Shown here one piece after another: positions 9,608 to 30,152 of a stretch of DNA of 64,000 nucleotides. Each line of letters opens with the position of its first letter. Position 1 is the stretch's first letter. The position numbers were made by a program, and so were the translations under genes. The notes under the pieces are model-generated. The model saw nothing but the letters and a program-made list of their open reading frames with translations. It was not told the DNA's origin and did not search any database. The stretch is from Pseudomonadota bacterium (GTDB lineage Bacteria > Pseudomonadota > Gammaproteobacteria > Burkholderiales > JAKAFK01): positions 6,022-70,021 of the forward strand of contig JAJYKK010000006.1 in NCBI GenBank assembly GCA_021788645.1, given 5' to 3'.

Positions 9608-9623
9608 TGGCATTCTTCTTGCT
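9608..9623 (+). promoter_or_regulatory. Sigma-54 (-24/-12) promoter candidate for cargo gene 2
   Basis: TGGCATTCTTCTTGCT matches TGGCA...TTGCT with exact GG-N10-GC spacing. It lies at the end of an AT-rich tract, 88 nt upstream of the ATG at 9710. Confidence 0.6.
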
Positions 9624-9709
9624 AATCGTATAGCCGCCGCTTTGTCACGGCACCGTTAGGCCGCGCCAATGCGGTCGTAGGGATCACCACTAGAGAACTG
9701 GAGAGCGCA

Positions 9710-11344: not shown

Positions 11345-13726
11345 TCATAGGTGCGCCAGCAGCGCCTTGGCCTGCGCCGCGCCCGGAAACTGCGCGCCGT
11401 CGGCAAGGGCCGCGCGCAAGTGCGCTTTGGCCCTTGTTCGGTTGCCTGCGTCGTAATAGGCAAGCCCCAGGTGGTACTGAAAAACAGGAATCTTCGGCGC
11501 CGCCGCGACGGAACGCTGGAGGAGCGCAATGGCGCGTCCGTACTGTCCCATCTTCACATAGACCCAGCCCAGCGTGTCCACGAAACCCGCATTGCCGCTG
11601 TTCTGGAAGGGCGCGGCGAGCGCCAGCGCTTGACGCAGGCTTGCGGGATCTCCCTTGGCACGGGTAAGGAGAGAGGCAAGATTATTGGCCGCCAGCTGGT
11701 CGCCTGGGAAACGCCGGAGTATGCCTTCGTACGCCCGTATCGCCTGAGCGCTCTGTCCGGCCGCGCCATAGGCCTGAGCAAGCGACATCGACAACGCGGG
11801 ATTGTCCGGTTGTACGCGCAACCCTTGCTCGAGAATGGCGATCGCATCGGTCATGCGTCCCTCACCCGCATCAAGCTGCGCGAGCGCCTGATAGGGTGCC
11901 GGCGTGCGCGGGCTCAACGCCATCGCGTGGCGCAGGGCCGCCTGGGATGCCGCAAACTGCTTGTCCGCCATTTCGAGCATGCCGATCAGTTCGTAATGGC
12001 GCGCGCTCTTCGGCACGACGCGAATCGCTTGCGCGACGCGCGCGATGGCTTGCCGGGCGTGCCCCTGCGCCAGCAGAATCCGGGTCAGCGCCGCCAGCGG
12101 GGGAAAGGCGCCGGGATCTTGCTGCAGCGCGAGGGCAAAGGCCGAAAGCGCCCGATCCGGCTCCTGGCGCTGCGCATAAAATATGCCCAGCTGATAGTTG
12201 CCGACGTAGGCCGCAGGATGCGCATTCCGCCAGCCAACAAGGGCCCGCTCGGCGGCGTCGAAGTCCTTCTCGCCCACCAGCAGGGCGGTCTTCTTCTGAA
12301 AAACGCCGAGATTGTCCGGTTCGTTCTTGAGGACCGCATTCAGCTGCGCGAGGGCGCCTCGGTAATGCTTCGTCGCCTCAAGAAAGTCGGCCATCGCGAT
12401 CCGGATGGCGGCATCGTCGGGATAGGCTGCGAGGGCGTTGGTAAAGACCGCCTGGGCGAGCTGCGGATCGCCGTTGGCCAGATGGGCCTTGGCCAGCAGC
12501 AGGAGGACCTCAGGCGAGTTCGGTTCCTCCTTCAAAACCGATCGGAAATCGTCCACCGCGTCCAGCGCATCGTCATGGGCCAGCCGCATCTCGCCTTGCA
12601 GCAGCAGCGCATCGACATTGCCCGCGTCGTGCGCGAGAACCGCCTTGAGGAGCTTGTCAGCCTGCGCGCGCTTCCCTTGCGCATTCTCCAGGCCGGCAAG
12701 CAGGGTCGATGCCTTAAGCCCGGCCGGTCCGTCGCCGTCGGCGTGAATGACGCGCTGCAACGCCGCTTGCGCCTCGTCGGGCCGCCCCATCTGCTGGTAG
12801 AGGCTCGCCAGGGCGAAGCTCAGCTCATAGACCTTGGGGTGCGTGTCCGCCACGCCGGCCAGCATTCGCGCGGCGGCCGGCAGGCCCTCCCGGGCCCCCA
12901 GGAAGGATGTCAGCAGGAGGTAGGGCTGCGGGTCGTCAGGCGTCTGCGCGATGGCCTGCCGGAGGGTGGCTTCCGCCCGAGCCGGGTGCGCGGTGCGGGC
13001 ATAGAAGGCGGCGAGGGCCGCGCGATACGGCAGCTCCTTCGGGGCGATGGCAATCGCCGCCCGATAGGCCTGCTCGGCCTGAGCCCATTGTCCGGCGCTC
13101 CCCGCCACCAGCGCGTAGTCCTCGCGCAGCGCGGCATCTCGCGGGCTCGCCTTGATCCCCATCGCGAGCACCGCCTCGGCGCGCGACGTATCGTGTGCTT
13201 CGCCATAGAGTTGGGCGAGCAGAACCACGGCGTCGGACTCGGCCGGATCCTGCCCGACCACTTGGGCAAGCTCCCGGATCGCGGCCGCGGCATTCCCCTG
13301 GCGCACCGCCACGGCCGCATCGAGCGTATGCCCTGCGGGATCGGCCGGTCGCGCGCGCAAGACGGCCTTGGCGAGCCGGGCGGCGTGGGCCGAGTCACCG
13401 GCGAACAGGTAGAGCTCGCCCAGGCGCACCTCGGCCTTGATGTCGCCGGGGTCGAGCTCGACCGCCTTGCGGTAGTCCGCGAAGGCCAGCGGCCAGTCCT
13501 GCTCGGCTTGCGCGACCCGCCCCGAGTAGTAGAAGCCTGCCACGCTCTTGGGGTCGATTTGCAGCACGTTTTCGAATTCCACCCGCGCCTTGCCATACTG
13601 GTGGCGGGCATAGAAGGCCTCGCCTCTTTTCAGATGCGCCGCCTCGCTCATGCCCCTCCCGCACCCCGCGAGCACCGCACACCCCAGCAACGCGAGAACA
13701 ACCCCCTTAGGCGCCAAGTTTCTCAT
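11345..13726 (-). CDS. prsT: TPR-repeat lipoprotein, PEP-CTERM-system PrsT-like
   Basis: The ORF is trimmed to the ATG at 13726, preceded by GGAGGG. The N-terminus MRNLAPKGVVLALLGCAVLAGC carries a lipobox. About 790 aa of tandem TPR-like repeats follow. It is adjacent to the exosortase, as expected for the PrsT family (TIGR02917, from memory). Confidence 0.78.
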   Translation of the reverse strand: MRNLAPKGVVLALLGCAVLAGCGRGMSEAAHLKRGEAFYARHQYGKARVEFENVLQIDPKSVAGFYYSGRVAQAEQDWPLAFADYRKAVELDPGDIKAEVRLGELYLFAGDSAHAARLAKAVLRARPADPAGHTLDAAVAVRQGNAAAAIRELAQVVGQDPAESDAVVLLAQLYGEAHDTSRAEAVLAMGIKASPRDAALREDYALVAGSAGQWAQAEQAYRAAIAIAPKELPYRAALAAFYARTAHPARAEATLRQAIAQTPDDPQPYLLLTSFLGAREGLPAAARMLAGVADTHPKVYELSFALASLYQQMGRPDEAQAALQRVIHADGDGPAGLKASTLLAGLENAQGKRAQADKLLKAVLAHDAGNVDALLLQGEMRLAHDDALDAVDDFRSVLKEEPNSPEVLLLLAKAHLANGDPQLAQAVFTNALAAYPDDAAIRIAMADFLEATKHYRGALAQLNAVLKNEPDNLGVFQKKTALLVGEKDFDAAERALVGWRNAHPAAYVGNYQLGIFYAQRQEPDRALSAFALALQQDPGAFPPLAALTRILLAQGHARQAIARVAQAIRVVPKSARHYELIGMLEMADKQFAASQAALRHAMALSPRTPAPYQALAQLDAGEGRMTDAIAILEQGLRVQPDNPALSMSLAQAYGAAGQSAQAIRAYEGILRRFPGDQLAANNLASLLTRAKGDPASLRQALALAAPFQNSGNAGFVDTLGWVYVKMGQYGRAIALLQRSVAAAPKIPVFQYHLGLAYYDAGNRTRAKAHLRAALADGAQFPGAAQAKALLAHL

Positions 13727-13798
13727 CCACTGCCCTCCATTATTGTTTCCATCCCGATGTCCAGCCGTTGCACGCGGCGTCCCCGAAAACACGCCTCG

Positions 13799-15436
13799 TC
13801 AGCTGGACAGCACCCATCTGGCGACCACGGCAAGAAGCGTGACATAGGACACCAGTCGCAAGCAGTCCCACCGGCGCCAGAGGTGGTTCAAGACCAATTC
13901 GACTCCATAGAACAACACGATCGCCTTGGCGACGGCGGCCCCCAAATGAATGCGGCTGCCATGCAAGGCAGGCAGGTTGGGAACCGCCAAGGCCAGGAAG
14001 ATCACCAGGAAATCGAGCGGAGTGACCTGGAAGCGGCCCTCGCTGGAAAAGCGAAAGCCCACCATGATCGCCGCCGCCAGCATGGCCATGTAGATGTTCT
14101 CGTACAACGCCATGTGGGCAAAGTCCCCGCCCGTCTGCCGGAGGTGGACCACCAGCACGCACGTGACATAGAGCACCGCACGCTCGATGGCGCCAAACGG
14201 CTGTCGCCGCTGCCGCGGATAAAGAAAAAGCGAAACCGCCCCCAGGGCGGCAGCAAGCCCACCCATGCCGGCCGACACGGGAGCGGCCTGGGCGACGGCG
14301 AGGAGGAAGTAGCCCGGGATCGTGAAGGCCGCGAAGAAGAACGCATAATTGGCTAATCGCCTTCGCTGTCCCGGCCACCGGCCGTTGCGCGCAAGGAAGG
14401 ATGCGGGCGGACGCCCGCCGGGCGGACGGGCCCGCCAACGCGCGCTCGCCGCCCATTGGAAGAAGAGGAGGACGCCGGCGCAGAACCCGACATAGGTTCC
14501 GACGATGAGCGAATCCGGGTCATCGCGCAGGAAGAGCGCGGCGACGACCAGCAGCGCCTGCGCCACATAGATCAGGAAAACCGCCTCATAATGGTCGAAT
14601 CCCAGGGCCAGCAGCTGATGGTGAATGTGCCGCTTGTCGGGCGAGAAGGGTGATTTGCCATCGCAGATGCGCAGCACCATCACCATCAGCGTGTCGAGGA
14701 TGGGCAAGCCCAGCAGCATCGCGGGAATGGCGGGGCTCAAGGGCGTGTCAGGCCGCTGCGTGAGAAGAATGGCCAGGACTCCCGTGGAAAAGCCCAGAAA
14801 CTGGCTCCCGCCGTCGCCCATGAAGATGCGCGCCGGATAGGTGTTGAAGCGCAGGAAGCCCAGAATGCTGCCCATGACCGCAAGCGCCACCACCATCAGG
14901 GCATAGGCGTCCACGATATAGGCGAGCGCGGCCACCGCCATCAGGCTGAGCAAGGTGGTTCCGCCGGCCAGCCCATCGAGGCCATCGGCGAGATTGATGG
15001 CGTTGGTAATCCCGAGGAGCGCGAACACGGTCAAGGGAATGGAGACGTAGGCGGGCAACCTCGAGGATTCCATGAACGGCACCGAATGGATCGCCACGCC
15101 GCCATGCACGACGACGATCAGGATGGCGATCAGCTGCCCGAGAAACTTGACCCGGTAGTCGAGGTTCTTGCGATCATCCCAGACCCCGAAGGCCAGGATG
15201 ATCGCGGTGCCCCACAGGTAGGCACTGACCGCCCGGGATGCGGCGAGCCAGAGGGCGACGGGCAGCACGGCGCCGACCGCCATCGCCAGGCCCCCGATGC
15301 GCGGGATCGGCCGCGTGTGGACCTTCCGCTCGTCCGGCACATCGACGAACTGCAGCCACTCTGCCGAGCGCATCAGGGGAGGGATCAACGCCATGGTGAC
15401 GAACATGGCGCTGAGGAAGCTGGCGAAATAAATCAC
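13799..15436 (-). CDS. WecA/MraY-family polyprenyl-phosphate HexNAc-1-phosphate transferase with extra C-terminal membrane domain
   Basis: 545 aa. VDVPDERKVHTRPIPRIGGLAMA...GVWDDRKNLDYRVKFLGQ...NAINLADGLDGLAGG are GT4 (MraY/WecA) motifs. About 190 additional hydrophobic residues follow the usual end of the domain. Confidence 0.85.
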   Translation of the reverse strand: MIYFASFLSAMFVTMALIPPLMRSAEWLQFVDVPDERKVHTRPIPRIGGLAMAVGAVLPVALWLAASRAVSAYLWGTAIILAFGVWDDRKNLDYRVKFLGQLIAILIVVVHGGVAIHSVPFMESSRLPAYVSIPLTVFALLGITNAINLADGLDGLAGGTTLLSLMAVAALAYIVDAYALMVVALAVMGSILGFLRFNTYPARIFMGDGGSQFLGFSTGVLAILLTQRPDTPLSPAIPAMLLGLPILDTLMVMVLRICDGKSPFSPDKRHIHHQLLALGFDHYEAVFLIYVAQALLVVAALFLRDDPDSLIVGTYVGFCAGVLLFFQWAASARWRARPPGGRPPASFLARNGRWPGQRRRLANYAFFFAAFTIPGYFLLAVAQAAPVSAGMGGLAAALGAVSLFLYPRQRRQPFGAIERAVLYVTCVLVVHLRQTGGDFAHMALYENIYMAMLAAAIMVGFRFSSEGRFQVTPLDFLVIFLALAVPNLPALHGSRIHLGAAVAKAIVLFYGVELVLNHLWRRWDCLRLVSYVTLLAVVARWVLSS

Positions 15437-15446
15437 CGCGGGCGCC

Positions 15447-17033
15447 TTAGTTCGGGACGTAGCTGGTCAGGCGCGGAACGGCGGCCCGCGCAAAACTGCT
15501 CAGGATCCGGTCGGCACGGCTGGGCGATTCGCCGGGCGAAAGTTCAGTGGTCAGGCGAACCAGCGCGCCGTCGGTGCGGTTTTGCCGGAGCGCATCCCAC
15601 AGCAGGTACCATTTCGCCAGGTATTCATTGGTAATGATCCTCCCCCGCTCCTGGAACCAGTAATACACAAGCTCCTTGACGTTGCCCTTGGCGATGACCA
15701 GACGATTCACGCGTAGCGGGTGTCCATTGACCCGCACGCCGCGCACCGCTCTTTGCGTCAGGCTCGTGATCTCCCAGCCGCCCCCGGGGATGCAGGTGCG
15801 CGGCGAGTGCGCCGACGCGCCTTTGCGCTGAGAGGCATAATAGGCCACATAGAAATTGACCACCTTGCGCGCCGTGCCGACATAATCGGCCAACAGGTAG
15901 TCCGTGAACTTGAGCTGCTTGATATAGATGTCGGCCATCTGTCCGCCGTGCCCTTGCCAGCCCGGAAGGTGCATCGGGAAGGTCGCAAAGTCTTGTCGCT
16001 TAGGCGTGACTTCGGCCCGCTTGGGGAGCGCGGTGGTGGCCAAAGCGACCAGGGCGAGGAGCCCCACCGCGACCAAATAGGAGGTGGGTAGCCGTCTGAC
16101 GCGGGCGCCGCGCGCGCGGGCACCGCGCGGCCACTCCAGCCCAAACACTTCGGCCAGATGCCGCCTGTCTCTGCCCACGCGGGCCATGACCCACATCTCC
16201 CCCACCAGGAGCGCCGTGCAGATCATGAAGATCACCCATCCCTCGAAAAGATGGAGAAAGCCCTCCGCCATCGCGCGGCCCCACCAGTCGACCGTCACGC
16301 CCACCAAGCCGATCCGGAAACTGTTCATCAGCACGGTCATGGGCACGGTGGAGACAAACACCAGCGCCCGTTTCCAGAGCGGCGCCTGAAACAGATAGGC
16401 CGCCACGAACCCCAGGGTCATCAGCGGAAACAGGTAGCGCAACCCGCTGCAGGCGTCGACCACCTGCAATTTGAGGCTGCCGAGATCGATGACGTTGCCG
16501 GCAAGATAGACGCTGTCCCCGAACGCCCGGATGAAGTCCACCCCCAACCGGGAGGACAACAGCTCGAGCTGCTCGGAGAGATTGTTGTAAAGGAAATTCG
16601 GCAGCGGAATCATCAGCCCCAGGATCAGCACGGGAATGCCGATCACCCGGAAGGCCCGCGGCCCCATGAAGGCCAGCGTCACGCCTGCCAGCACGACGAG
16701 AAAGGCGTATTGCACCAGAATGTACAGGGCGGACAGCTGCCCTGCGCCATACACCAGGGCGCCCAGCAGCACCACCGCGACACCCATCCAGGACCCGTCG
16801 AACGGCAAGCGCGCGAGGCGGTCCGACCGCTGCCAGACCAGGAACAGCGCAATCAATGGGATCAAGGGACCGTAACTGTATTCCGCGTGCGCTGGACTGA
16901 ACCACCATTGCACCATGACCGCGAGCCCGGCGTGGAAGACGCTCGCGAGAAGAAGCGCGGCCAGGGCCATGGAAGCCCATGCCGCGACCGACAGTTTCCA
17001 AAGGCTGGGTTCGTGTCCGCTCGCCACATCCAT
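15447..17033 (-). CDS. Exosortase fused to an EpsI-family domain
   Basis: 528 aa. Exosortase signature residues appear in VVDACSGLRYLF (Cys), LMNSFRIGL (Arg) and FLHLFEGW (His). The C-terminal ~200 aa carry the EpsI motif HSPRTCIPGGGW. Confidence 0.9.
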   Translation of the reverse strand: MDVASGHEPSLWKLSVAAWASMALAALLLASVFHAGLAVMVQWWFSPAHAEYSYGPLIPLIALFLVWQRSDRLARLPFDGSWMGVAVVLLGALVYGAGQLSALYILVQYAFLVVLAGVTLAFMGPRAFRVIGIPVLILGLMIPLPNFLYNNLSEQLELLSSRLGVDFIRAFGDSVYLAGNVIDLGSLKLQVVDACSGLRYLFPLMTLGFVAAYLFQAPLWKRALVFVSTVPMTVLMNSFRIGLVGVTVDWWGRAMAEGFLHLFEGWVIFMICTALLVGEMWVMARVGRDRRHLAEVFGLEWPRGARARGARVRRLPTSYLVAVGLLALVALATTALPKRAEVTPKRQDFATFPMHLPGWQGHGGQMADIYIKQLKFTDYLLADYVGTARKVVNFYVAYYASQRKGASAHSPRTCIPGGGWEITSLTQRAVRGVRVNGHPLRVNRLVIAKGNVKELVYYWFQERGRIITNEYLAKWYLLWDALRQNRTDGALVRLTTELSPGESPSRADRILSSFARAAVPRLTSYVPN

Positions 17034-19040: not shown

Positions 19041-19835
19041 CTAGGCACAGACCCATGACCCGTCCGGCTCATAGCCCAGTCTGATCAGGTTGTGGCCGGC
19101 GTACTGGTGAAACAGCTCGCGCGCCTCCTTCGAAAATTTGTTCTTCCAGTCCCCGGCCGTGCCCTTTCTCAGGAAGCTGCCTTTGACTTCCGTGCCGGCG
19201 CGTCTGCCGGCCACTGCCTGAAAGCAAAACCGCGCCTTCGCGCCTTCGAGCCGCGCGAGGTCGGCCGCACGCCCCGTCACCCGCTCGATCGGCTCCTTGA
19301 GCGCCGCCGCCGCGTCTTCCAGGAGATGTTCGTACTTGACCATCACGGCGCGGGGCCGGTCCGCCCAGGAGTCAATGAACTCATTCCAATTGAAATGAAA
19401 CAGCCGCCTGTTTTCGACGGTGAACAGATACTCGATCACGCGCGGCAGGTTGGCCTCCACATCCTCGTAGTCCCGGAATCGATTCTGCTTGCGCGCGCGC
19501 TCGACCAGGAGGGGAGAATTCTTTTCGTTGTGAAAGAACATGTGGTAGTACGCCGACACCATCACGTCCCGCCCGTCGCGAACGACGCAGAAGACGTTCC
19601 TCATGAGGGGCGAATAGAGGCTGTGGCAATGCATGATGCAACTCTCTATCCTGGGTGCGCAATTGCGCGGAAACGGCACGTCGAAGTAATGGGCCAGCAT
19701 CTGTCCGACCCATGTCCCGCCGGACTTGGGATATTCGGTCACGATATAAAGCGGCAAGACGTGGGACAACGTATGCTTCATGACCATGCGCTGAAGCGCG
19801 TCCATCTTGATGGCGAAACGAGGCCGATGATCCAC
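19041..19835 (-). CDS. PAPS-dependent sulfotransferase-domain protein
   Basis: It contains the 5'-PSB loop YPKSGGTW, the 3'-PB region VVRDGRDVMVSAYY, and the C-terminal FLRKGTAGDWKNKF characteristic of sulfotransferase domains. The start is uncertain, with in-frame ATGs at 19835, 19805, 19784 and 19778. Confidence 0.8.
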   Translation of the reverse strand: MDHRPRFAIKMDALQRMVMKHTLSHVLPLYIVTEYPKSGGTWVGQMLAHYFDVPFPRNCAPRIESCIMHCHSLYSPLMRNVFCVVRDGRDVMVSAYYHMFFHNEKNSPLLVERARKQNRFRDYEDVEANLPRVIEYLFTVENRRLFHFNWNEFIDSWADRPRAVMVKYEHLLEDAAAALKEPIERVTGRAADLARLEGAKARFCFQAVAGRRAGTEVKGSFLRKGTAGDWKNKFSKEARELFHQYAGHNLIRLGYEPDGSWVCA

Positions 19836-19927: not shown

Positions 19928-21067
19928 TCAGCCGAGGGGGGCCGACAAGATGCTGTCGTACAGTTCGCCATAGCGACGCGCCACCGCCGCCACGCCGAAG
20001 CGCTCACGGACCGCGTTTGTCGCCGCTCCCGTGGGGTAACGCCGCTCCTCGGCAAAGCGCTTCAGGCGCCGGCCGAGGGCATCTGCGTCGTCGACGGGCG
20101 CCCAATAGGCGACCGGCGCCCCCAGTTCCTTGAGCGCCGGGATATCCGAGAAGATGCAGGGCAGGCCGGTTCCGACCGCTTCGATGCCCGCCAGAGGCAG
20201 GCCTTCCCAGCGGCTCGGCATGACGAAGCAGTCGGCGGCGACCAGCCAGTCGGGAACATCGGACCGAACGCCATGGAATAGGATGCTCGGGTCGCCCGCC
20301 GCCAACGATTCCAGCTCCCCGCGCAGATCGCCGTCGCCGACGAGGTGCAACATCGCTTGCGCTTCGCCCAGGCGCGAGCGCCGCCAAGCCCTGATCAGGA
20401 CGTCGTGCGCCTTCGGGGCACCGGCGGCGCGACCGCCCTGGTGCGCATCCATGCGTCCGACCGACAGGTAGTGCAGGCGCGCCACGTCCAGCCCCAACGC
20501 GCGCTTGCGGGCCTGCGATGCCTGCGCGTCCCGCACCGGCCACGCAAAACGAACGCCGTTGAGAATCGTCGCAATCTCACCGGTCACCAGCATGCGGCAT
20601 GCGTCCGCGGCTTCGTGCCCGCAACCGATCGTGATCCGCGCCCGATTGCTGCGCAAGGCCAGGCGCTTGTCCCAGCGCACCTTCAATGTCGTGCTGTGGA
20701 CCGTCCTAACGATAGGGGGCGCCGCGCCATAAATCATCCGCATCAGACCATGGGCGAGGTCCGTATTGGCCGTGTGCAAATGCACCAGAGCAGGCGCCAG
20801 GCGACGAATTTCTCTCCCGTACCAGAGGACGGTTCTCAGGCCGAGACGGGCTGTCGGCCCGGTGGCGAAGATGACGCCACCCGCCTCAAGCTGCCTTGCC
20901 ATGGCGCGCCCCACCGGATCGGTCCTGGAACTGAGCACCGCCAAGCTCACCGCCACGCCCTGCTGCTTGAGCTCGCACAGCAGATCCACGACGAAGCGCT
21001 CGGCGCCTCCTGTGCACAGCGCGCCGACGACATGCACGATGGCGTGCTCTTGCGCAGCACGCGTCAT
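19928..21067 (-). CDS. Glycosyltransferase family 4
   Basis: 379 aa. VHVVGALCTGGAERFVVDL... and the E-x7-E region PSRWEGLPLAGIEAVGTGLP are present. Confidence 0.85.
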   Translation of the reverse strand: MTRAAQEHAIVHVVGALCTGGAERFVVDLLCELKQQGVAVSLAVLSSRTDPVGRAMARQLEAGGVIFATGPTARLGLRTVLWYGREIRRLAPALVHLHTANTDLAHGLMRMIYGAAPPIVRTVHSTTLKVRWDKRLALRSNRARITIGCGHEAADACRMLVTGEIATILNGVRFAWPVRDAQASQARKRALGLDVARLHYLSVGRMDAHQGGRAAGAPKAHDVLIRAWRRSRLGEAQAMLHLVGDGDLRGELESLAAGDPSILFHGVRSDVPDWLVAADCFVMPSRWEGLPLAGIEAVGTGLPCIFSDIPALKELGAPVAYWAPVDDADALGRRLKRFAEERRYPTGAATNAVRERFGVAAVARRYGELYDSILSAPLG

Positions 21068-22383
21068 GGCGGTGGCGCCTCCGTGACATCCTCAGGCCAG
21101 TAAGCCGTCTGCGCGGCCGAACGCCCGCCACCCAGCAGCTTCCCGGACAACAGGAAGATGCCCCCCACGGCCAAGGCGACATAGGCGGAATACATGAAGG
21201 GCACGGCCGCAATCGCGGTCGCCCCCCGCACCAGCATGTAGCCGTGCCAGGTATAGAATGGCAGCAGCAGCCCAAGGAGCTCAGGTCGGCCCAGCATCAA
21301 GCGTTCCCACGCAGAGAGGACGGCACCCCAAAGGAGCCCTAAGACGACGCCCCATGCGCCAAACGAGACGTACGCGTCGGAATACCAGAGCGCGGGAAAA
21401 TGGAAATAGATGGGCCATCCAGCGGGGATCCCCTCCATCAGCCGCGCGATATAGACGGGCGTGTCCTCGATCTTGGGCGGTTTGTACTTGAATAGGCGCA
21501 GGAACGGGTTGACGAGGTTGTAGCCATATTTCGTCAGGCTGTTGTACCCCGTATGCACCCCGACCTCGTCGGTCATCTGGAACGCGATCCCCATGCCGTA
21601 AACCAGCCCGGCGTCCGGCAGGCCGCGCGCGCCTGGCGCCGACATGTCCTCCGCCTTCTTGTGCATGACCATGGCGCTCACGCCCACCAGCAGAAAGAAC
21701 ACCACGAGGCTGCGCGCCAGCAGCATCATGAGGTTTTTTCGATCGGCAAGGGTCTGGAAGTAGAAGACGACCGCCGCCGGGACAAGCGAAAGCAGCGCGA
21801 ACGACCGAACATCCAGATAAACCGCAAAAACCAGGAACGGGATCGTGGCCAAGGCCGCGCGCAGGTAGCGCCGCTGCAAGGCGCTCAGCGTAATGAAGGG
21901 GGAAGAGGCCCACAAAAACACCTGCGACCAACTGGAGTGGTCATATTGGACGTAATTGTGATAGCCCAGGCCCCGCATCTCCGTCCAGTACGATGCCGCA
22001 CCGGCAAGCATCATCCCCAGGAACACAAGCCCGGCGACCCCCAGCCCCGGCTTGTTCCGGGCAATCTGCCAGGCCACGCGCGAGGGCCTGATGCCCAAGA
22101 CCCACCCCAGGCCGCCTTCCGCAAGCGCGAACAATCCATTGAAGACGAGCGCATAGCCGCACATGTAGCGTATGGTACGGGCGTGGACGGTCACGACGTC
22201 GTGGTGCCACCCACGGACATGGTCAAACGGCCCGGCGAACGCAAGCCCGAGCAGAAAGATCGAGAAATAGCTAATCAGGAGCCAGATGGCGGCGATCAGC
22301 CGACGGCTCTTGAGGGTACGCCAGAGCCTTGCCACGCTAAGCACGACATTGACGGATGCCAACGATATCGCAACGTAGTCCAT
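21064..22383 (-). CDS. Polytopic membrane protein, probable Wzy-type repeat-unit polymerase
   Basis: The ORF is trimmed to the ATG at 22383, preceded by GAGGA and 6 nt after the upstream stop. There are many hydrophobic segments and no soluble domain. Its position among GTs and a flippase suggests a polymerase. The assignment rests on context only. Confidence 0.55.
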   Translation of the reverse strand: MDYVAISLASVNVVLSVARLWRTLKSRRLIAAIWLLISYFSIFLLGLAFAGPFDHVRGWHHDVVTVHARTIRYMCGYALVFNGLFALAEGGLGWVLGIRPSRVAWQIARNKPGLGVAGLVFLGMMLAGAASYWTEMRGLGYHNYVQYDHSSWSQVFLWASSPFITLSALQRRYLRAALATIPFLVFAVYLDVRSFALLSLVPAAVVFYFQTLADRKNLMMLLARSLVVFFLLVGVSAMVMHKKAEDMSAPGARGLPDAGLVYGMGIAFQMTDEVGVHTGYNSLTKYGYNLVNPFLRLFKYKPPKIEDTPVYIARLMEGIPAGWPIYFHFPALWYSDAYVSFGAWGVVLGLLWGAVLSAWERLMLGRPELLGLLLPFYTWHGYMLVRGATAIAAVPFMYSAYVALAVGGIFLLSGKLLGGGRSAAQTAYWPEDVTEAPPP

Positions 22384-22388
22384 AGTCC

Positions 22389-23594
22389 TCACCTGCTCAT
22401 CAACACTGCATGCCGACGCTCGGGGGGCGCCTTGCACACCGCCTGGTAGACCGCCAAGTGGTCGTGCGCAAGCCCCTCCCAGGCGAAGTGTTCGGCCACG
22501 TACAGGCGGGCGGCCTCGCCCATCCGCTTCAGGCGATCAGCATCGCGAAGCAGACGTTCCAGCGTTCCGGCCAAGGCCTCGGGATCGTTTGGCCTCACCA
22601 GGGCGCCTGTCGTCCCCTCGACGACCATCTCCGGCAGCGCCCCCACGCGCGTGGCCACGACGGGCTTGCCGAACGCATAGGCCATGGGAATGACCCCGCT
22701 CTGGGTGGCGGAGCGGTAGGGCAGGACCACGAGGTCTGATGCCTCGAAGATGCCGCGTATTTCCGTATCGTCGATGAAGCGGTTGATCACCGTGACGCGG
22801 CCGCTCGCCGGCTTGAGGGCCGATGCGGCGATCGACCCGGCGCCCGCGATGATCAGCCGGCAGCGGATGCCCCTGTGCTGGAGGTCCACCATGCACGCCA
22901 GCAAATCGTCGAGCCCCTTGTAGGGCTCGATCCTTCCGAAAAACAGCATCGTCGGCTCTGCGCTGCGTGCCGGGAGTTCCGGCGCACGGGTGCCGCCCCC
23001 CGCCACCCGGCGGGTGAGCCCGCCGCCATGCGGGACCACATAGGTCGCGGCCGCGAGCGAGGCGCCATAGCGCGCCGTGAGTGCCGCCACGTGGTCGTTC
23101 GAGTGCACATGCACCGCCGCGCAACGGGCGAGCGCATGGGGGATCTGCCAAGCCCGCTGGTACCAGCCGAAGACGCGCCCCCATAGGGTTAGCCGCTCTT
23201 CGTGCGGGCGCGGGTCATGGACCGTGTACACCACATGCACGCCCCGGGCGCGCAGCGCGTCGACCAGTGCCGCCAATCCCTGCACATACGCCGTGATATG
23301 CACGACATCCGGCCGGTACCGGCCGCAGATCGTGCGCGCAATGGCCCGATAGAACAATGGGTTATAGCGTTCGAGGAGCTTCCGGCAGACGGCATTGGCG
23401 GACCAAGCGATGGCCCGGAGGTTCTCCCCGTCCGGCAGACCGGCGAGCACCCCCCGCTCGCCCAACACGACCACCGTCGCCTGGGCACCCCGGGCGGCGC
23501 CGCCCGACAGGGACTGGGCATAGTGCAGCATGCCTCCTTGCGCGCAGGCGCACAGATAGACAATCCTAAGCGGCCTTGACACGACGTCCTCCAT
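22389..23594 (-). CDS. Glycosyltransferase family 4
   Basis: 401 aa. PLRIVYLCACAQGGMLHYA...GRIEPYKGLDDLL...LPYRSATQSGVIPMAYAFGKPVVATRVGALPE are present. Confidence 0.85.
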   Translation of the reverse strand: MEDVVSRPLRIVYLCACAQGGMLHYAQSLSGGAARGAQATVVVLGERGVLAGLPDGENLRAIAWSANAVCRKLLERYNPLFYRAIARTICGRYRPDVVHITAYVQGLAALVDALRARGVHVVYTVHDPRPHEERLTLWGRVFGWYQRAWQIPHALARCAAVHVHSNDHVAALTARYGASLAAATYVVPHGGGLTRRVAGGGTRAPELPARSAEPTMLFFGRIEPYKGLDDLLACMVDLQHRGIRCRLIIAGAGSIAASALKPASGRVTVINRFIDDTEIRGIFEASDLVVLPYRSATQSGVIPMAYAFGKPVVATRVGALPEMVVEGTTGALVRPNDPEALAGTLERLLRDADRLKRMGEAARLYVAEHFAWEGLAHDHLAVYQAVCKAPPERRHAVLMSR

Positions 23595-25032
23595 AGAGCC
23601 CTCTCACGCGGTAGTTGACCCCGTGCATGAGCGCGAGCAATGCCGCCGCGCAACCGACCAGCGGGGCGCCCCGGACATGCCCGCTCGCCCAGTGCAGGAC
23701 CAGAATCCCAGGCGCGGCGAACGCGGCCTCGAGAAGCCCGATGGCCAGGACGCGACGCAGGGAAACCCCGGCGAGGGAGAGCAGCCAGGCCGTCTTGAGC
23801 ACCAGGAATGCCCCGCAGGACACGCCCAAAAGCGCGATGGCCGCGCGGCTGCCCCAAAAAGCGCCCCCCAGCGGGGCGCCGACGATGAGGATCAGGTAAC
23901 CGATCTGCAGCGCGAGTTCCTGCCCCTGTTTCTGCAACACGCTCACCAGGCGCGACAAGGTTTCCGAGATCAGCGAAAACATGATCCAGGGCATGAGCCA
24001 CTGCGCGTAGACGCCGGATGTCATCCAGCGCGCGCCGAACGCCATCCGGGTCACCTCGGGCAGGACGCAGGCCGCGAGGCCGAAGGTGGGCAGCGCAAAC
24101 GCCAGCAGGCTGGCGAATACGCGCTGCGTGACGGGCGCCAGATTATCGGTCCGATGCGCCTGCGCGGCCATGGCGAAAAAGACCTGCGAGGTCGATTGCC
24201 CCACGAACCGGGCCGGCACCTGCAGGATCCGTCGGCTCAGGGCGAAGAAGCCGGCCGCGCCGGCGCCGAACAGCAGGGAAAGCAAGAGCACGGGCAAATT
24301 GGCGGACAGGGCGTTGATGAGACTGGACCAAGTCGTCAGCAGCGGGAATTTTCGGTACTTGTGTGCGCTCGCCCGCAGCCTCGCAAGCCCCCGCGCCTGT
24401 CCGAGGCGCAGTGCCCGCGCGGGGACCAGGCGTACGAGGGCCGCCGCCGCGGCGAACTGCCCTACCGCTTGCCCGATGAGCAGCGCGAAAAGCCCGCCGC
24501 CGAGCAGCCCGCCGGCCACCTGCGGCACGCATTGACCCACGCCCTGGCACGTCTTTGCGATCGCCGAAACGCCGAATGCCTCGCGACGGATCGCCCAGGT
24601 CGACAGGATTGTCGCAAACCCGGTGAGAAACAGGACGCAGGGCATGAGCCAGGCGAACGGGGCGAGCCCGGGGGCGTGGACCAGCGCAAACAGCCGGGCC
24701 TGGAACACCCATGCCAGCAGGCCGACCAGACCCGAGAATGCGGCGGTGCTCAACACGGCCAGCTGCAAGACGGGTAGCGCGTGCGCTTCACGGCGCGGCA
24801 GCGGAATGGCGAGCTCGAAATGAAGGGAGACGATGGTCGAAAAAAGGCCGACGAGCGCCACGAATACGGCATAGAGGCCGAACATTCCCGGGCTATACAG
24901 GCGGGTCAGGATCGGCATGCTGGCGATCACGGCCCCCTGCCCGGCGAGGGCGCCGCCGGTGACGAGCACGACGTGCCGAATCCGGCGGGAACGACCGGGC
25001 GCGAATGCTCGCAGGCTCGCCGGGCTGTTCAT
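23566..25032 (-). CDS. Oligosaccharide flippase (Wzx / MOP superfamily)
   Basis: The track ORF 23566..25914 is trimmed to the ATG at 25032, which overlaps the upstream stop (ATGA). MNSPASLRAF...VVLVTGGALAGQGAVIASMPILTRLYSPGMFG is followed by ~12 hydrophobic segments. The upstream 880 nt of the track ORF overlaps the next gene in another frame. Confidence 0.8.
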   Translation of the reverse strand: MNSPASLRAFAPGRSRRIRHVVLVTGGALAGQGAVIASMPILTRLYSPGMFGLYAVFVALVGLFSTIVSLHFELAIPLPRREAHALPVLQLAVLSTAAFSGLVGLLAWVFQARLFALVHAPGLAPFAWLMPCVLFLTGFATILSTWAIRREAFGVSAIAKTCQGVGQCVPQVAGGLLGGGLFALLIGQAVGQFAAAAALVRLVPARALRLGQARGLARLRASAHKYRKFPLLTTWSSLINALSANLPVLLLSLLFGAGAAGFFALSRRILQVPARFVGQSTSQVFFAMAAQAHRTDNLAPVTQRVFASLLAFALPTFGLAACVLPEVTRMAFGARWMTSGVYAQWLMPWIMFSLISETLSRLVSVLQKQGQELALQIGYLILIVGAPLGGAFWGSRAAIALLGVSCGAFLVLKTAWLLSLAGVSLRRVLAIGLLEAAFAAPGILVLHWASGHVRGAPLVGCAAALLALMHGVNYRVRGLYGGRRVKAA

Positions 25033-27986
25033 GGGCGGGGGGGGCCGAGCGGACGGCTGCCGGCCGTCGCCGGAATTTCGAAGAACCGGTAATCCAGGGC
25101 TCGCACGGAGGTGTCCGCGCAGTAGGCCGGGCCGCTCGCGACACCGGGCAATGGTCGCCGATGCGGCCAGGTCACGAGTCGGCCGACCGCGCCGACGACG
25201 CGCCCGTCGATGCACAACCGTCCGCGCCAGGGTTGGCGCGACAGGTTGCCCGCCACCAGCAGCCATGCGCCGTCCTTCCTCCTGTAGGCGCTGACATACA
25301 CGTCCCGAGCCCCGGTCGTCGCGGGCGGGGTTTGGGCAAAGTAGGGGTAGAAGCTCGCCCCGGCGTAGCCGAAGGCATCCAGATCCGCGAGGGCCCGGTT
25401 CACTTCGGCGACATTGCAATGCAGCGGCCAGGGCGCGACATCGTGCAGCATCAGGAGCGCCATAAGCGCGCGCGTCGGCTGGCGGCGCGCCGCCTCCCGG
25501 GCGTCGAATTCGGGCAGAAAGACGGGGATGAGGCCCCATTGCCGCCCCATGAATTCGGCCCGGAACGCCGCCAAGCTCATCACATCGAGATAGTCGTCCT
25601 TGACGATCCCCCGATACTGCTCGCCGTCCACATAGGCATCGACGAAAGCCAGCATCGGGATCGCCGGATTGCCCGACGCATGGGCAATGGAGACGCTTCC
25701 CGGGCCATTGGCCTGCAGGATCTCGTCGAGCGTGCGGTAGAGCCGGCGATAGGCGAACATAGGGTACTCGTCCTCTTCGCGTCCGTCTCTCAGGTAGCCC
25801 ACCCCGGCATGGGGCGCGAAGCCGCCCCACGGCATCGTGTTGTCGAAATAGAGGCCCCGCAGGCCGAACGTCTTCACGAACGCGGCGGTCTTCCATTCGA
25901 TGAACCGGCGCCATCCGGCCGCACGCGGCGACATCAAGGCGAAGCTGTCACCGTAGGCCCGCACGTCGGCCGGGGCCGACTGCACATTGTTCATGAACCA
26001 TGCGCGCTTGAAGAACGGCCATTGCGGGCTCCCCGTCGACAGGAAGGTCGGGCACACATAGGGCACGGGGTCGAGCCCCGCCGCCCGCAGCCGCGCCAGG
26101 CGCGCGCGGAAGCGGGCAGGATCGCTGGCCTCGGGATAGCCGTAATACTTCATCGAGTCGGGCGTCGGCGTCGGCCAGAGGATGGTGACATTCGCCCCGC
26201 GCGCCGGCGCAATGCGCAGCGTACGCCACCCGGAAGGCAACGGCTTGACCGGAGTCGCCTCGAGGCCGATCGTGAAATGCCAGGGGCTGGGCAGCGGCTG
26301 GGCCGGCGATTTGAGGTTGAGGCGCAAGGTCACCACGCCGGGCCTTCGCACGACCTGGAGGGCATTGGCGCGATCCGCGTTCGGCCACTGAGCGCCGGTT
26401 TCGGCGAACCAGAACAAGCCGACCTCGTTATCGCCGATCCAATAGAACGGGATGAACCGGCTTTGATCCACGACCCCGGCGCCAACAGGTATTCGCCCCG
26501 AGTCCGCATACCCGCGGGCATTCCATTTGGAGCGCAGGCTCGCGTGCGCGGCGGCAAGCGGGATATTGAGCACGAGTTGCCCGAGGCCCTTCTCCGCGCC
26601 CGCCGCGGAGAGCTCGATGCGTGCAAGGCCGTCGAATGCGATCGTCGTCGACACGTCGATCCGTACCGCCGATGGGCCACCGGAATATGACAGAGTCTGC
26701 GTCGCCCTGACCCGGTTTCCCTCACGGACGATACGGACGGCACCGGCCCTGGCCAGGGCCGGCCGGCCGTCCAGGGTCGCCTGCAGAGAGACGGGCGAAG
26801 CCAGCAGGGGACGCCCCAGAGAGACGATCTGCGTGGGCAGGGCACTCGGGCCGAAACGGTAGGTGCGTCCCCACACGCGAACCGCGCCTCGGACGACGCT
26901 CGGGGCTGTCCATGGCCGGGGAATCCGGCGATCCAACAAGGCCTCTTCGTCGGGCCAGCGCAGGGCAGGCACGGTCAGCGTGCGCCGCAAGGTCGCCACC
27001 AGGCGACCCCTGTCGTAGACCCACGCGACGATGTCGTAGGTTCCCGCGGCCGGCCACGGCACGCGTACCCTCATGAGGGACCCCGCAAACGGGCGCAGCG
27101 CCGCCCCCGCCGGCAGCGGGGCCCCGTGCCGCACCAGCGCGAGGCGCGCGGCGATTCCCCGACGTCGCCCGGTGGCCTCGTCCGCGATTTCGAGGTCGAG
27201 CGCCTGGTGCGCATCGTCGACATCATAGTGAAGCGCGAATGCCCGGGCGCCCGTCGCGGGAGGCTCGTAGACCCCCGCGAAATGGCGCGCGACTTGCGCA
27301 GGGGTCAGGGCAACGTCGTAGAGGCGCACCTCATCGAGAAGCGTCGTCGTGAACCTGGGCCGGTCCCAGGCCAGATCGCCCAGGCTGAAGGAAGATCCCA
27401 GGCTTTTTGGGAGCTGGCACGGCACGGGTCGGCGCGTCGTCGGCACCCCGTCCACATACAGCATCACCCCGCGGGAAGACCACGTTCCGGCGATGAAATG
27501 CCATTTCCCGGGCGCCCAGTCGACCGCCGCCGCACTCGAGAAATAGGGGCCATGCGCCTGATCGGCGGTGCTCAGCATCAGAAGTTCGGCGTTCTGGTAA
27601 TACTTGTAGAGATACAAAGCCCCCTGTCCCCGGGCATCGAAGAAGACATGGAACCACCCATCCGTACTCCGCCAGTCGACCGGCTTGACCCACATCTCGA
27701 TCGACCCTTCGCGGGCGTTCAGGATGCCGGCCGTGGGATAGTCGAGGTGCCCAGAGAGCGGCCCGATCTTGAGGGCCTGCCCCACCTTTCCCGCCGCCAG
27801 GGTGGGCGATAGCCCGACGACTGTCGCCTTCACCACGCCGCCTGGGCCTTGGCCGTCGAACCCACGGTCAAAGGACACATACAGGGTCGGGCGCGGGTCG
27901 GCGAGGGTCTCCCCGACTCGAAACCAGAGCATGACCAGCAGAACCACGGCGAACCCGCGCGCCCGCCTATCGCCGCCACGCCACAT
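25029..27986 (-). CDS. Large secreted protein with an N-terminal LamG/concanavalin-like domain and a putative glycoside-hydrolase-like domain
   Basis: 985 aa. A signal anchor (GFAVVLLVMLWF) is present. The LamG-like block runs GSIEMWVKPVDW...WHFIAGTWSSRGVMLYVDGV...LDEVRLYDVALTPAQV. The C-terminal ~600 aa (IPFYWIGDNEVGLFWFAE..., LRGLYFDNTMPWGGF...) resemble DUF4091/GH-like domains from memory. Confidence 0.6.
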   Translation of the reverse strand: MWRGGDRRARGFAVVLLVMLWFRVGETLADPRPTLYVSFDRGFDGQGPGGVVKATVVGLSPTLAAGKVGQALKIGPLSGHLDYPTAGILNAREGSIEMWVKPVDWRSTDGWFHVFFDARGQGALYLYKYYQNAELLMLSTADQAHGPYFSSAAAVDWAPGKWHFIAGTWSSRGVMLYVDGVPTTRRPVPCQLPKSLGSSFSLGDLAWDRPRFTTTLLDEVRLYDVALTPAQVARHFAGVYEPPATGARAFALHYDVDDAHQALDLEIADEATGRRRGIAARLALVRHGAPLPAGAALRPFAGSLMRVRVPWPAAGTYDIVAWVYDRGRLVATLRRTLTVPALRWPDEEALLDRRIPRPWTAPSVVRGAVRVWGRTYRFGPSALPTQIVSLGRPLLASPVSLQATLDGRPALARAGAVRIVREGNRVRATQTLSYSGGPSAVRIDVSTTIAFDGLARIELSAAGAEKGLGQLVLNIPLAAAHASLRSKWNARGYADSGRIPVGAGVVDQSRFIPFYWIGDNEVGLFWFAETGAQWPNADRANALQVVRRPGVVTLRLNLKSPAQPLPSPWHFTIGLEATPVKPLPSGWRTLRIAPARGANVTILWPTPTPDSMKYYGYPEASDPARFRARLARLRAAGLDPVPYVCPTFLSTGSPQWPFFKRAWFMNNVQSAPADVRAYGDSFALMSPRAAGWRRFIEWKTAAFVKTFGLRGLYFDNTMPWGGFAPHAGVGYLRDGREEDEYPMFAYRRLYRTLDEILQANGPGSVSIAHASGNPAIPMLAFVDAYVDGEQYRGIVKDDYLDVMSLAAFRAEFMGRQWGLIPVFLPEFDAREAARRQPTRALMALLMLHDVAPWPLHCNVAEVNRALADLDAFGYAGASFYPYFAQTPPATTGARDVYVSAYRRKDGAWLLVAGNLSRQPWRGRLCIDGRVVGAVGRLVTWPHRRPLPGVASGPAYCADTSVRALDYRFFEIPATAGSRPLGPPRP

Positions 27987-29277
27987 TCTGTGCGCCTCCT
28001 GATGAGCGCCTCACGATCCGGTAGAACGACGCCCCCGTGTCGAGGACCTCGATCCGCTTCGTGGCGAGCGAAACGGCGAATGCGCCGATCCGCCGATACG
28101 GGCCGATGCCCGAGTCGGCCCCGTAGAGCCCATAGAACCCGGGCGGCAGCGTTTGCACGTCGACAGCCCAGTAACGCCCTTCGCGGTGGATCGCATGACC
28201 GCCGTATGGCCTCGCCAGCGGCTCGCCGATGAAGACCCCCTGGCCTGGCATGGCCACGCTCTTCCAGTACGCCTCGATCAAGGTTTCGCCGCGCAAGTAG
28301 CGGCTGATGGCGACGGCCGGATCCGGAAATTTCCCCGGAAAATCGCACGGCTCGACCACGGTGCCATAGCTGCCGGTGGCTCCGGCCTTCAGCCAGGCCA
28401 GGGCACTCATCTGGCTGCTGCCCAGGAGCACCCCGCCGTAGGACGTCAGGTGGTCGGCAATCGCCCCGGGAAGATAGCGGTTGCTGTCGATCATGGGCAC
28501 GCGCGCCAGCCCGGTGAAGTAAAAAAGGACGTCCTTCCTGCGCTCGATGGCATTGGCCCGCACATGGACGAGATGCACGAGCGGACGCATGCTGCGAACC
28601 AGCGGGGAAAATTCGACGGCGCGCACATCGCGGGCACGATCGTTGGTGTCCACGAGGTAGCCGGTCCCCGCCGGGTGCGTTCCGTCCGAGGCCACGCCCC
28701 GGTCGATCAGGGCCTTGACGTCGGCGAAGGTCGTGCCCGCGAGCATCATGGTGGGGCGCCATCCGAAGTCCCGATAAGGATGGGCGCTGTCGGACCTGAA
28801 GTAGGGATCGAAACGCGTCGGCTTGCAGCCGGTGGCGCAAAAGCGCCGGTCATAGCCGGCGGCAAACGCCGTCGTGATCGACATGCAGCCCACCCGGTAG
28901 GGCAATGTCCAGGTGAGCGCGAAGGCCTGCACGTCCCGCGGCGTATGGGCATCGACCCACGCCTTGAGGGCGATGAATTGTGCCGGCGGCATCACCGCCT
29001 CCCCAGGCGGAAAGCGTACGTGGATCACGTTGCGGGGCGGGATCCGGCGAACCTTGGCGTAGTAGCGCCCGATGCGAACACTGAGCGGATCGGCGTCGTT
29101 GACGATGACCGCGAGCTCCTGCGGCGTCAAACAGGTCCTGGGAAAGAAGACTCGCGGCATGGCATCGGCATGGGCCACGGCCACGCCGGCCGACAGCATC
29201 CAGCCGACGAGGAGCAGCAGCGCGTGCCTCCATGCGGCCATCGCGCCTTGCCGGAAAAGGGGCGCCGTGCGGGCCAT
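27967..29277 (-). CDS. Secreted conserved hypothetical protein (TIGR03790-like, from memory)
   Basis: The ORF is trimmed to the ATG at 29277, 3 nt after the upstream stop, with an alternative ATG at 29241. The signal peptide is MAAWRHALLLLVGWMLSAGVAVAHA. AVIVNDADPLSVRIGRYYAKVRRIPPRNVIHVRF resembles the N-terminal pattern I associate with the TIGR03790 family. Confidence 0.55.
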   Translation of the reverse strand: MARTAPLFRQGAMAAWRHALLLLVGWMLSAGVAVAHADAMPRVFFPRTCLTPQELAVIVNDADPLSVRIGRYYAKVRRIPPRNVIHVRFPPGEAVMPPAQFIALKAWVDAHTPRDVQAFALTWTLPYRVGCMSITTAFAAGYDRRFCATGCKPTRFDPYFRSDSAHPYRDFGWRPTMMLAGTTFADVKALIDRGVASDGTHPAGTGYLVDTNDRARDVRAVEFSPLVRSMRPLVHLVHVRANAIERRKDVLFYFTGLARVPMIDSNRYLPGAIADHLTSYGGVLLGSSQMSALAWLKAGATGSYGTVVEPCDFPGKFPDPAVAISRYLRGETLIEAYWKSVAMPGQGVFIGEPLARPYGGHAIHREGRYWAVDVQTLPPGFYGLYGADSGIGPYRRIGAFAVSLATKRIEVLDTGASFYRIVRRSSGGAQNVAWRR

Positions 29278-29279
29278 CG

Positions 29280-30152
29280 CTATGGGCGGGCGCCCGCCAC
29301 GGCGTTCGGCTCGTCGATGCGGGCAGGCGCCTCGCGCAACGGGAAAAGTCCGCCCTTGAGCTTGTCTTGCGCCACCAGATGAATGAGACCGGCGTCGATG
29401 CCCGGCCGCTGCTCGGCGAATCCGTAAACCAGGGCCGTGTCGCACAGCAGATTGATGAGGCGCGGGACGCCTTGGCTATACCCGAACGTTGCGGCGATCG
29501 CCGCATCGTCAAACATGGCCGGATCGCCGCCCACCAGGCCCAGCCGATGGCGGATGTAGGTCGCCGTCTCCTCCGCGTCCAAGGCCTCGAGGTGGTAATC
29601 GACGGCAATGCGCTGGGCGAATTGCAGGAGATCCGGTCGGCGCAGCATCTCGCGCAACTGGACCTGCCCCACGAGAATCACCTGCAGCACGAGTCCCTTG
29701 TCCGCATTCACGTTGGAGAGCATGCGAAGCTCTTCGAGGGTCTCCGGCAGCATGTTTTGCGCCTCGTCGACGATGAGCAGCGCCCGATGCCCGCGCGCCG
29801 ACTGCGCCGCAAGGAAGTCGAGAAACGTGTGGAGCATTTCCGTGCTGTCGCGGCCGCGATAGTCCAGCCGGAAGGCAAACAGGATGCGGGGGAGCAACTC
29901 GGCATAGGTACGCGGCGTATGCGAGACGAGCCCGACCGCCGTCCCGTGCGCGACCTGCCCGAGCAGATGCCGGACCAGCGTGGTCTTTCCGGTCCCGATC
30001 CCGCCCGTGATCACATTGAAGCCCGCCTGGTTCATGAGCCCGTATTCAAGGAGATCCATGCCCAGCCGGTGCTTCCTGCTGAAGTACAGAAAACCGGGAT
30101 CCGGATGGATGGAAAAGGGCTTTTCGCGAAATCCGTAGAACGCCTCGTACAT
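29280..30152 (-). CDS. ExeA/GspA-like AAA ATPase, PEP-CTERM-locus subfamily
   Basis: 290 aa. MYEAFYGFREKPFSIHPDPGFLYFSRKH...ITGGIGTGKTTLVRHL...LLIVDEAQNM has Walker A and B motifs intact. Confidence 0.85.
   Translation of the reverse strand: MYEAFYGFREKPFSIHPDPGFLYFSRKHRLGMDLLEYGLMNQAGFNVITGGIGTGKTTLVRHLLGQVAHGTAVGLVSHTPRTYAELLPRILFAFRLDYRGRDSTEMLHTFLDFLAAQSARGHRALLIVDEAQNMLPETLEELRMLSNVNADKGLVLQVILVGQVQLREMLRRPDLLQFAQRIAVDYHLEALDAEETATYIRHRLGLVGGDPAMFDDAAIAATFGYSQGVPRLINLLCDTALVYGFAEQRPGIDAGLIHLVAQDKLKGGLFPLREAPARIDEPNAVAGARP

Follow-up and report, generated by a model that had tools for sequence, protein, structure and literature searches.

The exopolysaccharide (EPS) operon described here is carried on a stretch of 64,000 nucleotides from a Pseudomonadota bacterium of the Burkholderiales (positions 6,022 to 70,021 of contig JAJYKK010000006.1, assembly GCA_021788645.1), referred to at its full length as the window. 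Two large exported proteins encoded in the middle of this operon, one of 985 residues and one belonging to the TIGR03790 family, are the subject of the analysis. Both genes and the neighbours discussed with them lie on the minus strand, arranged as follows:

23566..25032, minus strand, Wzx-type flippase (Polysacc_synt), the start of which overlaps the stop of the 985-residue gene (ATGA)
25029..27986, minus strand, open reading frame (ORF) of the 985-residue protein, exported, LamG plus DUF6067 (PF19543), glycoside-hydrolase-like (ORF, ribosome-binding site, Pfam and AF2 model)
27967..29277, minus strand, TIGR03790 family protein (NCBIfam match and AF2 model)
29280..30152, minus strand, ExeA-like ATPase (TIGR03015-like, under the cut-off), directly upstream of the TIGR03790 gene

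A preliminary description of the window, made from the nucleotides and their translations, had noted the translational coupling of the two genes to those around them, and the coordinates bear this out. The overlap between the 985-residue ORF and the upstream TIGR03790 gene is exactly 20 nt (the upstream TAG occupies 27967-27969), and the flippase ATG (25032-25030) shares its ATGA with the TGA of the 985-residue gene. The ATG of the 985-residue ORF is located 8 nt after AGGAGG. For the TIGR03790 gene two starts are possible, ATG 29277 (436 residues), which is placed 2 nt past the ATPase stop, and ATG 29241 (424 residues), the one picked by gene callers; residue numbers refer to the 424-residue version throughout. 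Judged by eye, both N-termini are signal-like, as described earlier, with a basic stretch, then a hydrophobic stretch and then a small-residue cleavage motif (MAAWRHALLLLVGWMLSAGVAVAHA with the cut before DA in the TIGR03790 protein, and RRARGFAVVLLVMLWFRVGETLA with the cut before DP in the 985-residue protein). An identical 985-residue protein is found on contigs of Betaproteobacteria metagenome-assembled genomes (MAGs). Export of both proteins is thus supported, and the remark that they are little understood is apt, both coming from catalogued but uncharacterised families.

The operon begins with K/L/M/N genes of a type II secretion system (T2SS), followed by OPX, a 416-residue protein, PCP, a tyrosine kinase and the ExeA-like ATPase. 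TIGR03790, the 985-residue protein, the Wzx flippase, a GT4, a 439-residue membrane protein, a GT4, a sulfotransferase and another GT4 come next, and the remainder consists of an exosortase with fused EpsI, a WecA-like transferase, PrsT, a methyltransferase and further sugar-modifying genes. The export block comprises OPX, a presumed outer-membrane barrel, the PCP chain-length protein, the tyrosine kinase and the ExeA-like ATPase, and the two genes of interest are situated at the junction of this conserved block and the polymer-specific Wzx/Wzy cassette of an XrtD-type EPS locus. Three genes define the type:

15447..17033, minus strand, exosortase XrtD with fused EpsI domain (TIGR04152)
13799..15436, minus strand, WecA-like (PF00953) priming transferase, the conserved partner of XrtD
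11345..13792, minus strand, PrsT-like TPR protein (317 bits on TIGR02917, cut-off 312)

The exosortase reaches 547 bits against TIGR04152, the model of XrtD (cut-off 400), and 161 bits against TIGR03109, that of XrtA, below the cut-off of 208, and by its sequence it classifies as XrtD and not XrtA. We surveyed 79 metagenomic XrtD loci (L090-L168), 23 of which have both flanks of at least 8 kb. The WecA-like PF00953 transferase is present in 56 of the 79, and in 23 of 23 where the flanks are full, while PrsT is found in 19 of the 23; the order XrtD, WecA-like, PrsT represents a strongly conserved core. The WecA-like protein of the window has 545 residues, approximately the first 300 of which match WecA, the rest being a C-terminal extension.

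In the XrtA/PEP-CTERM EPS loci described previously (Haft 2006, PMC1569441) the export block is homologous, made up of OPX, PCP, tyrosine kinase and ExeA-like ATPase, and PrsT as well as an exosortase with EpsI are likewise part of those loci. The window differs in that the exosortase is XrtD with fused EpsI, the accessory export proteins score under the XrtA-system cut-offs, the primer is WecA-like and not PF02397, and no deacetylase, FemAB or AsnB gene was found. The preliminary description had taken the locus for an XrtA locus devoid of its canonical members. Their absence stands, as none of the deacetylase, FemAB-like, AsnB and Bac_transf families is present among the window ORFs scanned, but the XrtA premise was wrong. 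Since the locus is of XrtD type with a WecA-like primer in place, the XrtA set is not expected, and there is nothing to replace.

A further proposal was that the pair takes over the roles of the absent CE4 deacetylase, EpsB primer, asparagine synthase and FemAB-like protein. Beyond the absence of these families from the ORFs scanned, one further point may be counted for this idea: in XrtA loci, as we understand them, the deacetylase follows the ATPase gene, which is the slot of TIGR03790 here. The exosortase is however XrtD, and the WecA-like transferase and PrsT are conserved in XrtD loci, so a primer is present. Moreover, both proteins are exported, unlike FemAB, AsnB and EpsB, which act in the cytoplasm or inner membrane; no CE4 deacetylase is seen among the top-50 Foldseek matches listed for either model; and both families are missing from most XrtD loci. 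The replacement proposal is thus largely refuted, and we regard it as very improbable.

For the 985-residue protein, an AF2 model based on 31 homologues (pLDDT 88, pTM 0.83) was combined with Pfam and alignment data, yielding the following architecture:

27897..27986, minus strand, signal peptide or anchor, residues 1-30 (basic then hydrophobic; AF2 helix 7-26)
27279..27884, minus strand, LamG / concanavalin-like domain, residues ~35-236 (PF13385; profile match to 5hon)
26970..27239, minus strand, Ig-like beta-sandwich, residues ~250-339 (secondary structure of the AF2 model)
26247..26909, minus strand, beta-sandwich matched by PF19543, residues ~360-580, with the invariant Asp452 inside (Pfam, AF2, alignment)
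25347..26195, minus strand, (beta/alpha)8 barrel, residues ~598-880 (AF2 model, alignment A4)
25074..25304, minus strand, C-terminal beta-sandwich, residues ~895-971 (AF2 model)

The LamG/concanavalin-like start recognised earlier is well founded: PF13385 (Laminin_G_3) covers residues 80-233 at 4e-23 (82.7 bits, gathering cut-off 27.6) and is matched by 31 of 31 family members, and this part displays a profile match (9.5e-14) to the LamG-like domain of the extracellular arabinanase 5hon. The suggestion of a DUF4091/GH-like remainder held in part. It is GH-like in that PF19543 (GH123_N, formerly DUF6067) is matched, marginally by the window protein (24.5 bits against a cut-off of 22, residues 342-524 only) and also by all 31 aligned homologues (best 6e-25), and a LamG-less homologue (P0308) bears the NCBI name 'DUF6067 family protein'; DUF4091 (PF13320) on the other hand is without match. 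Searching PDB sequences with the family profile recovered LamG relatives only.

Invariant in the barrel are Y643, Y713, D715 at the end of strand 4, R747, H769 on strand 5, E789 after strand 6 (in DGEQY) and H848, with D715 and E789 being the sole invariant carboxylates of the barrel across alignment A4 (identity 22-49%). The barrel motifs are kept in a 27%-identical homologue (L134). Foldseek comparison of the full model with the PDB returned many weak multi-domain matches, the most global being to 3mi6, an alpha-galactosidase of GH36 (TMt 0.40-0.42), and to 8iu8, a dextranase of GH66 (TMt 0.45), and a minority of family members weakly matches Glyco_hydro_66, GHL6 and DUF6259. PF13199 is weakly matched by 6 members, these Pfam matches having E-values of only ~3e-3 and occurring in a minority of members.

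With the GH66 dextranases and GH36 (clan GH-D), the model shares a plan in which a (beta/alpha)8 barrel is framed by two beta-sandwiches, one N-terminal and one C-terminal. Catalysis in GH66 and clan GH-D relies on an Asp of strand 4 together with an acid that follows strand 6. In the model the invariant Asp of strand 4 and the invariant acid after strand 6 occupy comparable places, albeit with weak fold and sequence matches, so that Asp715 and Glu789 may be considered a candidate catalytic pair. Unlike in GH66 and GH36, there is no significant sequence match for the 985-residue protein, the TM-scores amount to 0.40-0.45 only, and the catalytic roles are putative.

The name of the matched Pfam domain, GH123_N, and a GH123_cat protein adjoining one homologue would instead be in line with a GH123-type beta-N-acetylgalactosaminidase that employs substrate-assisted catalysis. 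The PF19543 (GH123_N) beta-sandwich is common to GH123 and the 985-residue protein, and their sandwich-plus-barrel plans are similar. GH123 enzymes and their relatives are however equipped with an adjacent catalytic Asp-Glu motif (PMC11087588), whereas Asp715 precedes Asn716, Glu789 is 74 residues away, and no adjacent Asp-Glu occurs among the invariant or near-invariant columns. Furthermore, PF13320 (GH123_cat/DUF4091) remains unmatched in 31 of 31 members at E<=1, and when the family profile was compared by hhalign with the neighbouring GH123_cat protein, the probability was 0.3. Lacking PF13320 and the Asp-Glu motif, and with a negative hhalign result, GH123 membership was rejected, and its likelihood is close to negligible.

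The 985-residue family is rare, with ~65-70 clusters in a collection of 5.8 billion proteins, a count limited by the word index. An 86%-identical homologue (L007) resides in the same operon as in the window. The locus of a 49% homologue (L008) holds TIGR03790 (61% identical), LamG-DUF6067, a flippase, a GT4, a 428-residue protein and a GT4, and the 27% homologue of L134, which is without LamG, is encoded in a group of DUF6067-like, flippase-like and sulfotransferase genes divergent from an XrtD, WecA, PrsT block. A flippase directly downstream of the DUF6067 gene is hence common to the window and L007, to L008 and to L134, that is to three divergent cassettes. As a separate observation, in locus L006 a DUF6067 homologue of a distant lineage (7056-9797, plus strand) stands directly after a gene for a CBM_4_9 + GH123_cat protein, an adjacency that suggests a degradative pairing, unlike the EPS-operon setting.

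We conclude that polymer-specific Wzx/Wzy cassettes have recruited the 985-residue protein, a glycosidase-like enzyme, which most likely trims or releases the polymer of its own operon. The idea of periplasmic or extracellular trimming voiced in the preliminary description is thus plausible for this protein, in view of the barrel, the invariant Asp/Glu, the flanking beta-sandwiches and the flippase adjacency in three loci. The enzyme would cut the operon's own polysaccharide, which may be GlcNAc-primed and is probably sulfated, in the periplasm or outside the cell, with LamG as a putative glycan-binding module, and such cutting would set chain length or free the polymer. Glycanases encoded in EPS operons are represented by PslG/GH39, BcsZ/GH8, AlgL/PL5, PelA/GH166 and ExoK/GH16, and chain-length setting or polymer release is the role of PslG, BcsZ, AlgL and ExoK in other EPS systems. 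The likeness lies in an exported glycan-cleaving enzyme encoded in a biosynthetic operon, with the polymer made by that operon as its presumed substrate. Unlike these glycanases, the 985-residue protein belongs to DUF6067/PF19543, a family without characterised member, carries an N-terminal LamG and is part of a Wzx/Wzy cassette of an XrtD locus.

The assignment of the second protein to TIGR03790, made earlier from a residue pattern, agrees with NCBIfam, where the match scores 245.1 bits (cut-off 67, E 1.2e-72) and spans positions 1-311 of the 316 in the profile. The protein is 52-63% identical to its homologues from Sulfuricella, Thiobacillus, Chromatiaceae and Methylococcaceae. The AF2 model (pLDDT 88, pTM 0.85) is composed of two parts:

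28207..29154, minus strand, alpha/beta domain, residues ~30-345 (AF2 model, conservation)
28009..28197, minus strand, C-terminal beta-sandwich, residues ~349-411 (AF2 model)

Many homologues match the query only to ~347-350, and the C-terminal beta-sandwich is hence optional; the window protein shows no difference at family level, but it has this optional domain and a seat in an EPS operon, the latter as found for only about a fifth of the close homologues. At 50% identity the family falls into 4,120 clusters. Scanned against Pfam at E<=10, 32 members gave noise only, the profile search of PDB sequences was without match, and Foldseek of the model against the PDB and BFVD recovered nothing significant. 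Assignments to the alkaline-phosphatase superfamily, LmbE/CE14, SGNH and CE4, considered by motif, were dropped as no such structures appeared in Foldseek. The protein is a periplasmic alpha/beta protein of a large family with no relative in Pfam or among solved structures.

Conservation and covariation were assessed in 156 diverse representatives. D51, S54, R204, R207, D263, T266, S267, E297, P298, K304, Y315 and S328 are ~99% conserved, and the near-universal Asp/Glu/Arg/Lys/Ser/Thr/Tyr cluster may constitute an active or binding site. Cys119 covaries with Cys135, and 20 of 21 sequences without Cys299 are also non-Cys at position 139. From this pattern we infer two structural disulfides, C119-C135 and C139-C299, and as the covariation of the cysteines indicates disulfides, the protein would be extracytoplasmic.

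These data also bear on a very different proposal, in which TIGR03790 is a clan CD (caspase/gingipain-like) cysteine peptidase or transpeptidase that processes exosortase substrates through a His264/Cys299 dyad. PorU of type IX secretion offers an analogy; the lone high-probability Foldseek match in the PDB is human separase 9hvy (probability 0.87, 224 columns, E 0.07); and His264 ends one strand with Cys299 after the next, both being invariant in close homologues. Across the 156 representatives, however, His264 is conserved in 85% only (otherwise N, S, T or D) and Cys299 in 84% only (otherwise Y, F, G, T and others), the two are lost independently of each other, and Cys299 pairs with Cys139 by covariation, indicating a disulfide. 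D263, T266, S267 and E297 are by contrast ~99% conserved. The His/Cys protease was rejected on these grounds of conservation and covariation, and its probability is minute.

Long TIGR03790 members are fused to G8 + CEMIP beta-helix, dockerin, LamG, PKD/He_PIG, FG-GAP and TSP3 modules, all of which are extracellular or glycan-associated. Our best guess for the window protein, at low confidence, is that it processes or binds glycan in the periplasm, and it may perhaps act on the nascent polymer alongside the export machinery. One or both proteins could alternatively be non-catalytic, serving as lectin-like matrix scaffolds or adhesins, or as periplasmic polymer chaperones. LamG and the several beta-sandwich domains of the 985-residue protein fit such roles, as do the adhesin-type repeats fused to TIGR03790 relatives and the missing enzyme-fold match for the TIGR03790 model. 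The invariant Asp/Glu/His/Tyr in the TIM barrel of the 985-residue family and the near-universal charged cluster of TIGR03790 argue against them, and we consider this alternative rather unlikely.

In 16 of 80 TIGR03790 genome loci, PCP/OPX/ATPase or XrtD/PrsT genes are present within 10 kb, in several arrangements; the chance level for such a neighbourhood is ~2% by a rough estimate of our own that was not computed. The slot after the ATPase is held by TIGR03790 also in Sulfuricella and in loci L010, L017, L129, L138 and L145. Clustering of the neighbours of the 80 loci yielded no universally conserved partner. The association of TIGR03790 with EPS export is thus real but optional, the gene being enriched near PrsT/XrtD and near the PCP/OPX/ATPase block.

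Taken jointly, the explanation we favour, to which we give an even chance of being right, is that the 985-residue protein is an EPS-specific glycanase and the TIGR03790 protein a periplasmic glycan-binding or processing component. Several findings weigh against it. The remaining 64 of the 80 TIGR03790 loci are positioned among housekeeping genes, and a TIGR03790 gene is found in only 4 of the 79 XrtD loci. No structural match to the TIGR03790 model is significant, which leaves residue conservation and fusion partners as the grounds for calling it an enzyme, and the TM-scores of the full 985-residue model are low. Both families are biochemically uncharacterised, and our literature searches on TIGR03790, DUF6067, PF19543, XrtD and VPLPA-CTERM found nothing relevant. 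Finally, homologues of the 985-residue protein at 43-46% identity, from other lineages and phyla, are solitary and outside EPS loci, and the family is hence not intrinsically EPS-biosynthetic.

The solitary homologues, together with the further GH gene adjoining one of them, would also suit a glycosidase of catabolism or scavenging, or one directed as a weapon at the matrix of competitors, that is merely carried in the operon and does not act on what the operon makes. Such a passenger role is decidedly unlikely, considering that the 985-residue gene overlaps both neighbours translationally and that the flippase adjacency is kept in three divergent EPS cassettes. Association with exosortase loci elsewhere, the check suggested in the preliminary description, is weak and partial for TIGR03790 (16 of 80 and 4 of 79, as above) and not regular for the DUF6067-like gene, which occurs in 1 of the 79 XrtD loci. 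Neither protein is core to exosortase loci; both are accessory.

Exosortase/PEP-CTERM EPS systems are drivers of flocculation and biofilm growth among bacteria of the environment and of wastewater, and to our knowledge their accessory genes are largely without functional tests. In this context, the locus type is corrected from XrtA to XrtD, a conserved XrtD / WecA-like / PrsT core is defined, and the two proteins of obscure role are placed as accessory, not core. D715 and E789 emerge as testable candidate catalytic residues of a rare candidate GH family, and TIGR03790 is flagged as a large periplasmic family without structural match. More speculatively, and with a probability well short of an even chance, the DUF6067 barrel may be the first of a new family of glycoside hydrolases or transglycosylases dedicated to the sulfated Wzx/Wzy EPS of XrtD systems, with TIGR03790 an enzyme of new fold that processes polysaccharide in the periplasm, docked on the PCP/OPX machinery.

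Several neighbouring genes complement the picture:

~35222-38752 and beyond, minus strand, GspK/L/M/N type II secretion genes, directly upstream of the EPS export block
32862-34112, minus strand, 416-residue protein after OPX, presumed outer-membrane barrel
21064-22383, minus strand, 439-residue membrane protein, presumed Wzy polymerase
19041-19805, minus strand, Sulfotransfer_1 gene among the GT4 genes
3177-4871, minus strand, heparinase II/III-like protein (PF07940 + PF16889) at the distal end of the locus
6024-8330, minus strand, 768-residue fusion of zinc-type alcohol dehydrogenase and GFO/IDH/MocA oxidoreductase domains
8553-9302 and 9710-10405, plus strand, two neighbouring ORFs of 249 and 231 residues without Pfam family

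Sulfuricella (L004) and a MAG of the Burkholderiales (L010) likewise have T2SS genes beside the EPS export block. The family of the block's ExeA-like ATPase is linked to T2SS secretin assembly, and a functional link between the T2SS genes and the export block is possible. Neither the 416- nor the 439-residue protein has a Pfam or NCBIfam match, while the Sulfuricella counterpart of the former shows a faint match to the beta-barrel BBP2_2. Given the Sulfotransfer_1 gene in the locus, the polymer may be sulfated, which would be unusual in proteobacterial EPS. Sulfotransferase homologues adjoin XrtD in three other loci, L134 (6-530), L109 and L157, in the first of these beside the DUF6067-like gene. 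The heparinase II/III-like gene adjoins those of a UDP-GlcNAc 2-epimerase and a GT4, and its product is possibly a second glycan-cleaving or glycan-modifying enzyme of the locus. The 768-residue fusion is presumably a sugar-nucleotide-modifying enzyme of unusual architecture. The remainder of the window (46-64 kb) consists of housekeeping genes.

A strict VPLPA regular expression detected no substrate gene in the window, and a looser tail pattern then gave two candidates, the 249- and 231-residue ORFs. Their PEP-CTERM-like tails contain TPLPGTALLLGSGLLGLVGLARSRK and APIPAPVTLLGSGLLGLVGFARRR, respectively, and match both VPLPA-CTERM (14.5 bits, cut-off 25.35) and the tail of floc_PepA below threshold. 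Judging from these tails, the two ORFs are candidate XrtD substrates encoded inside the locus.

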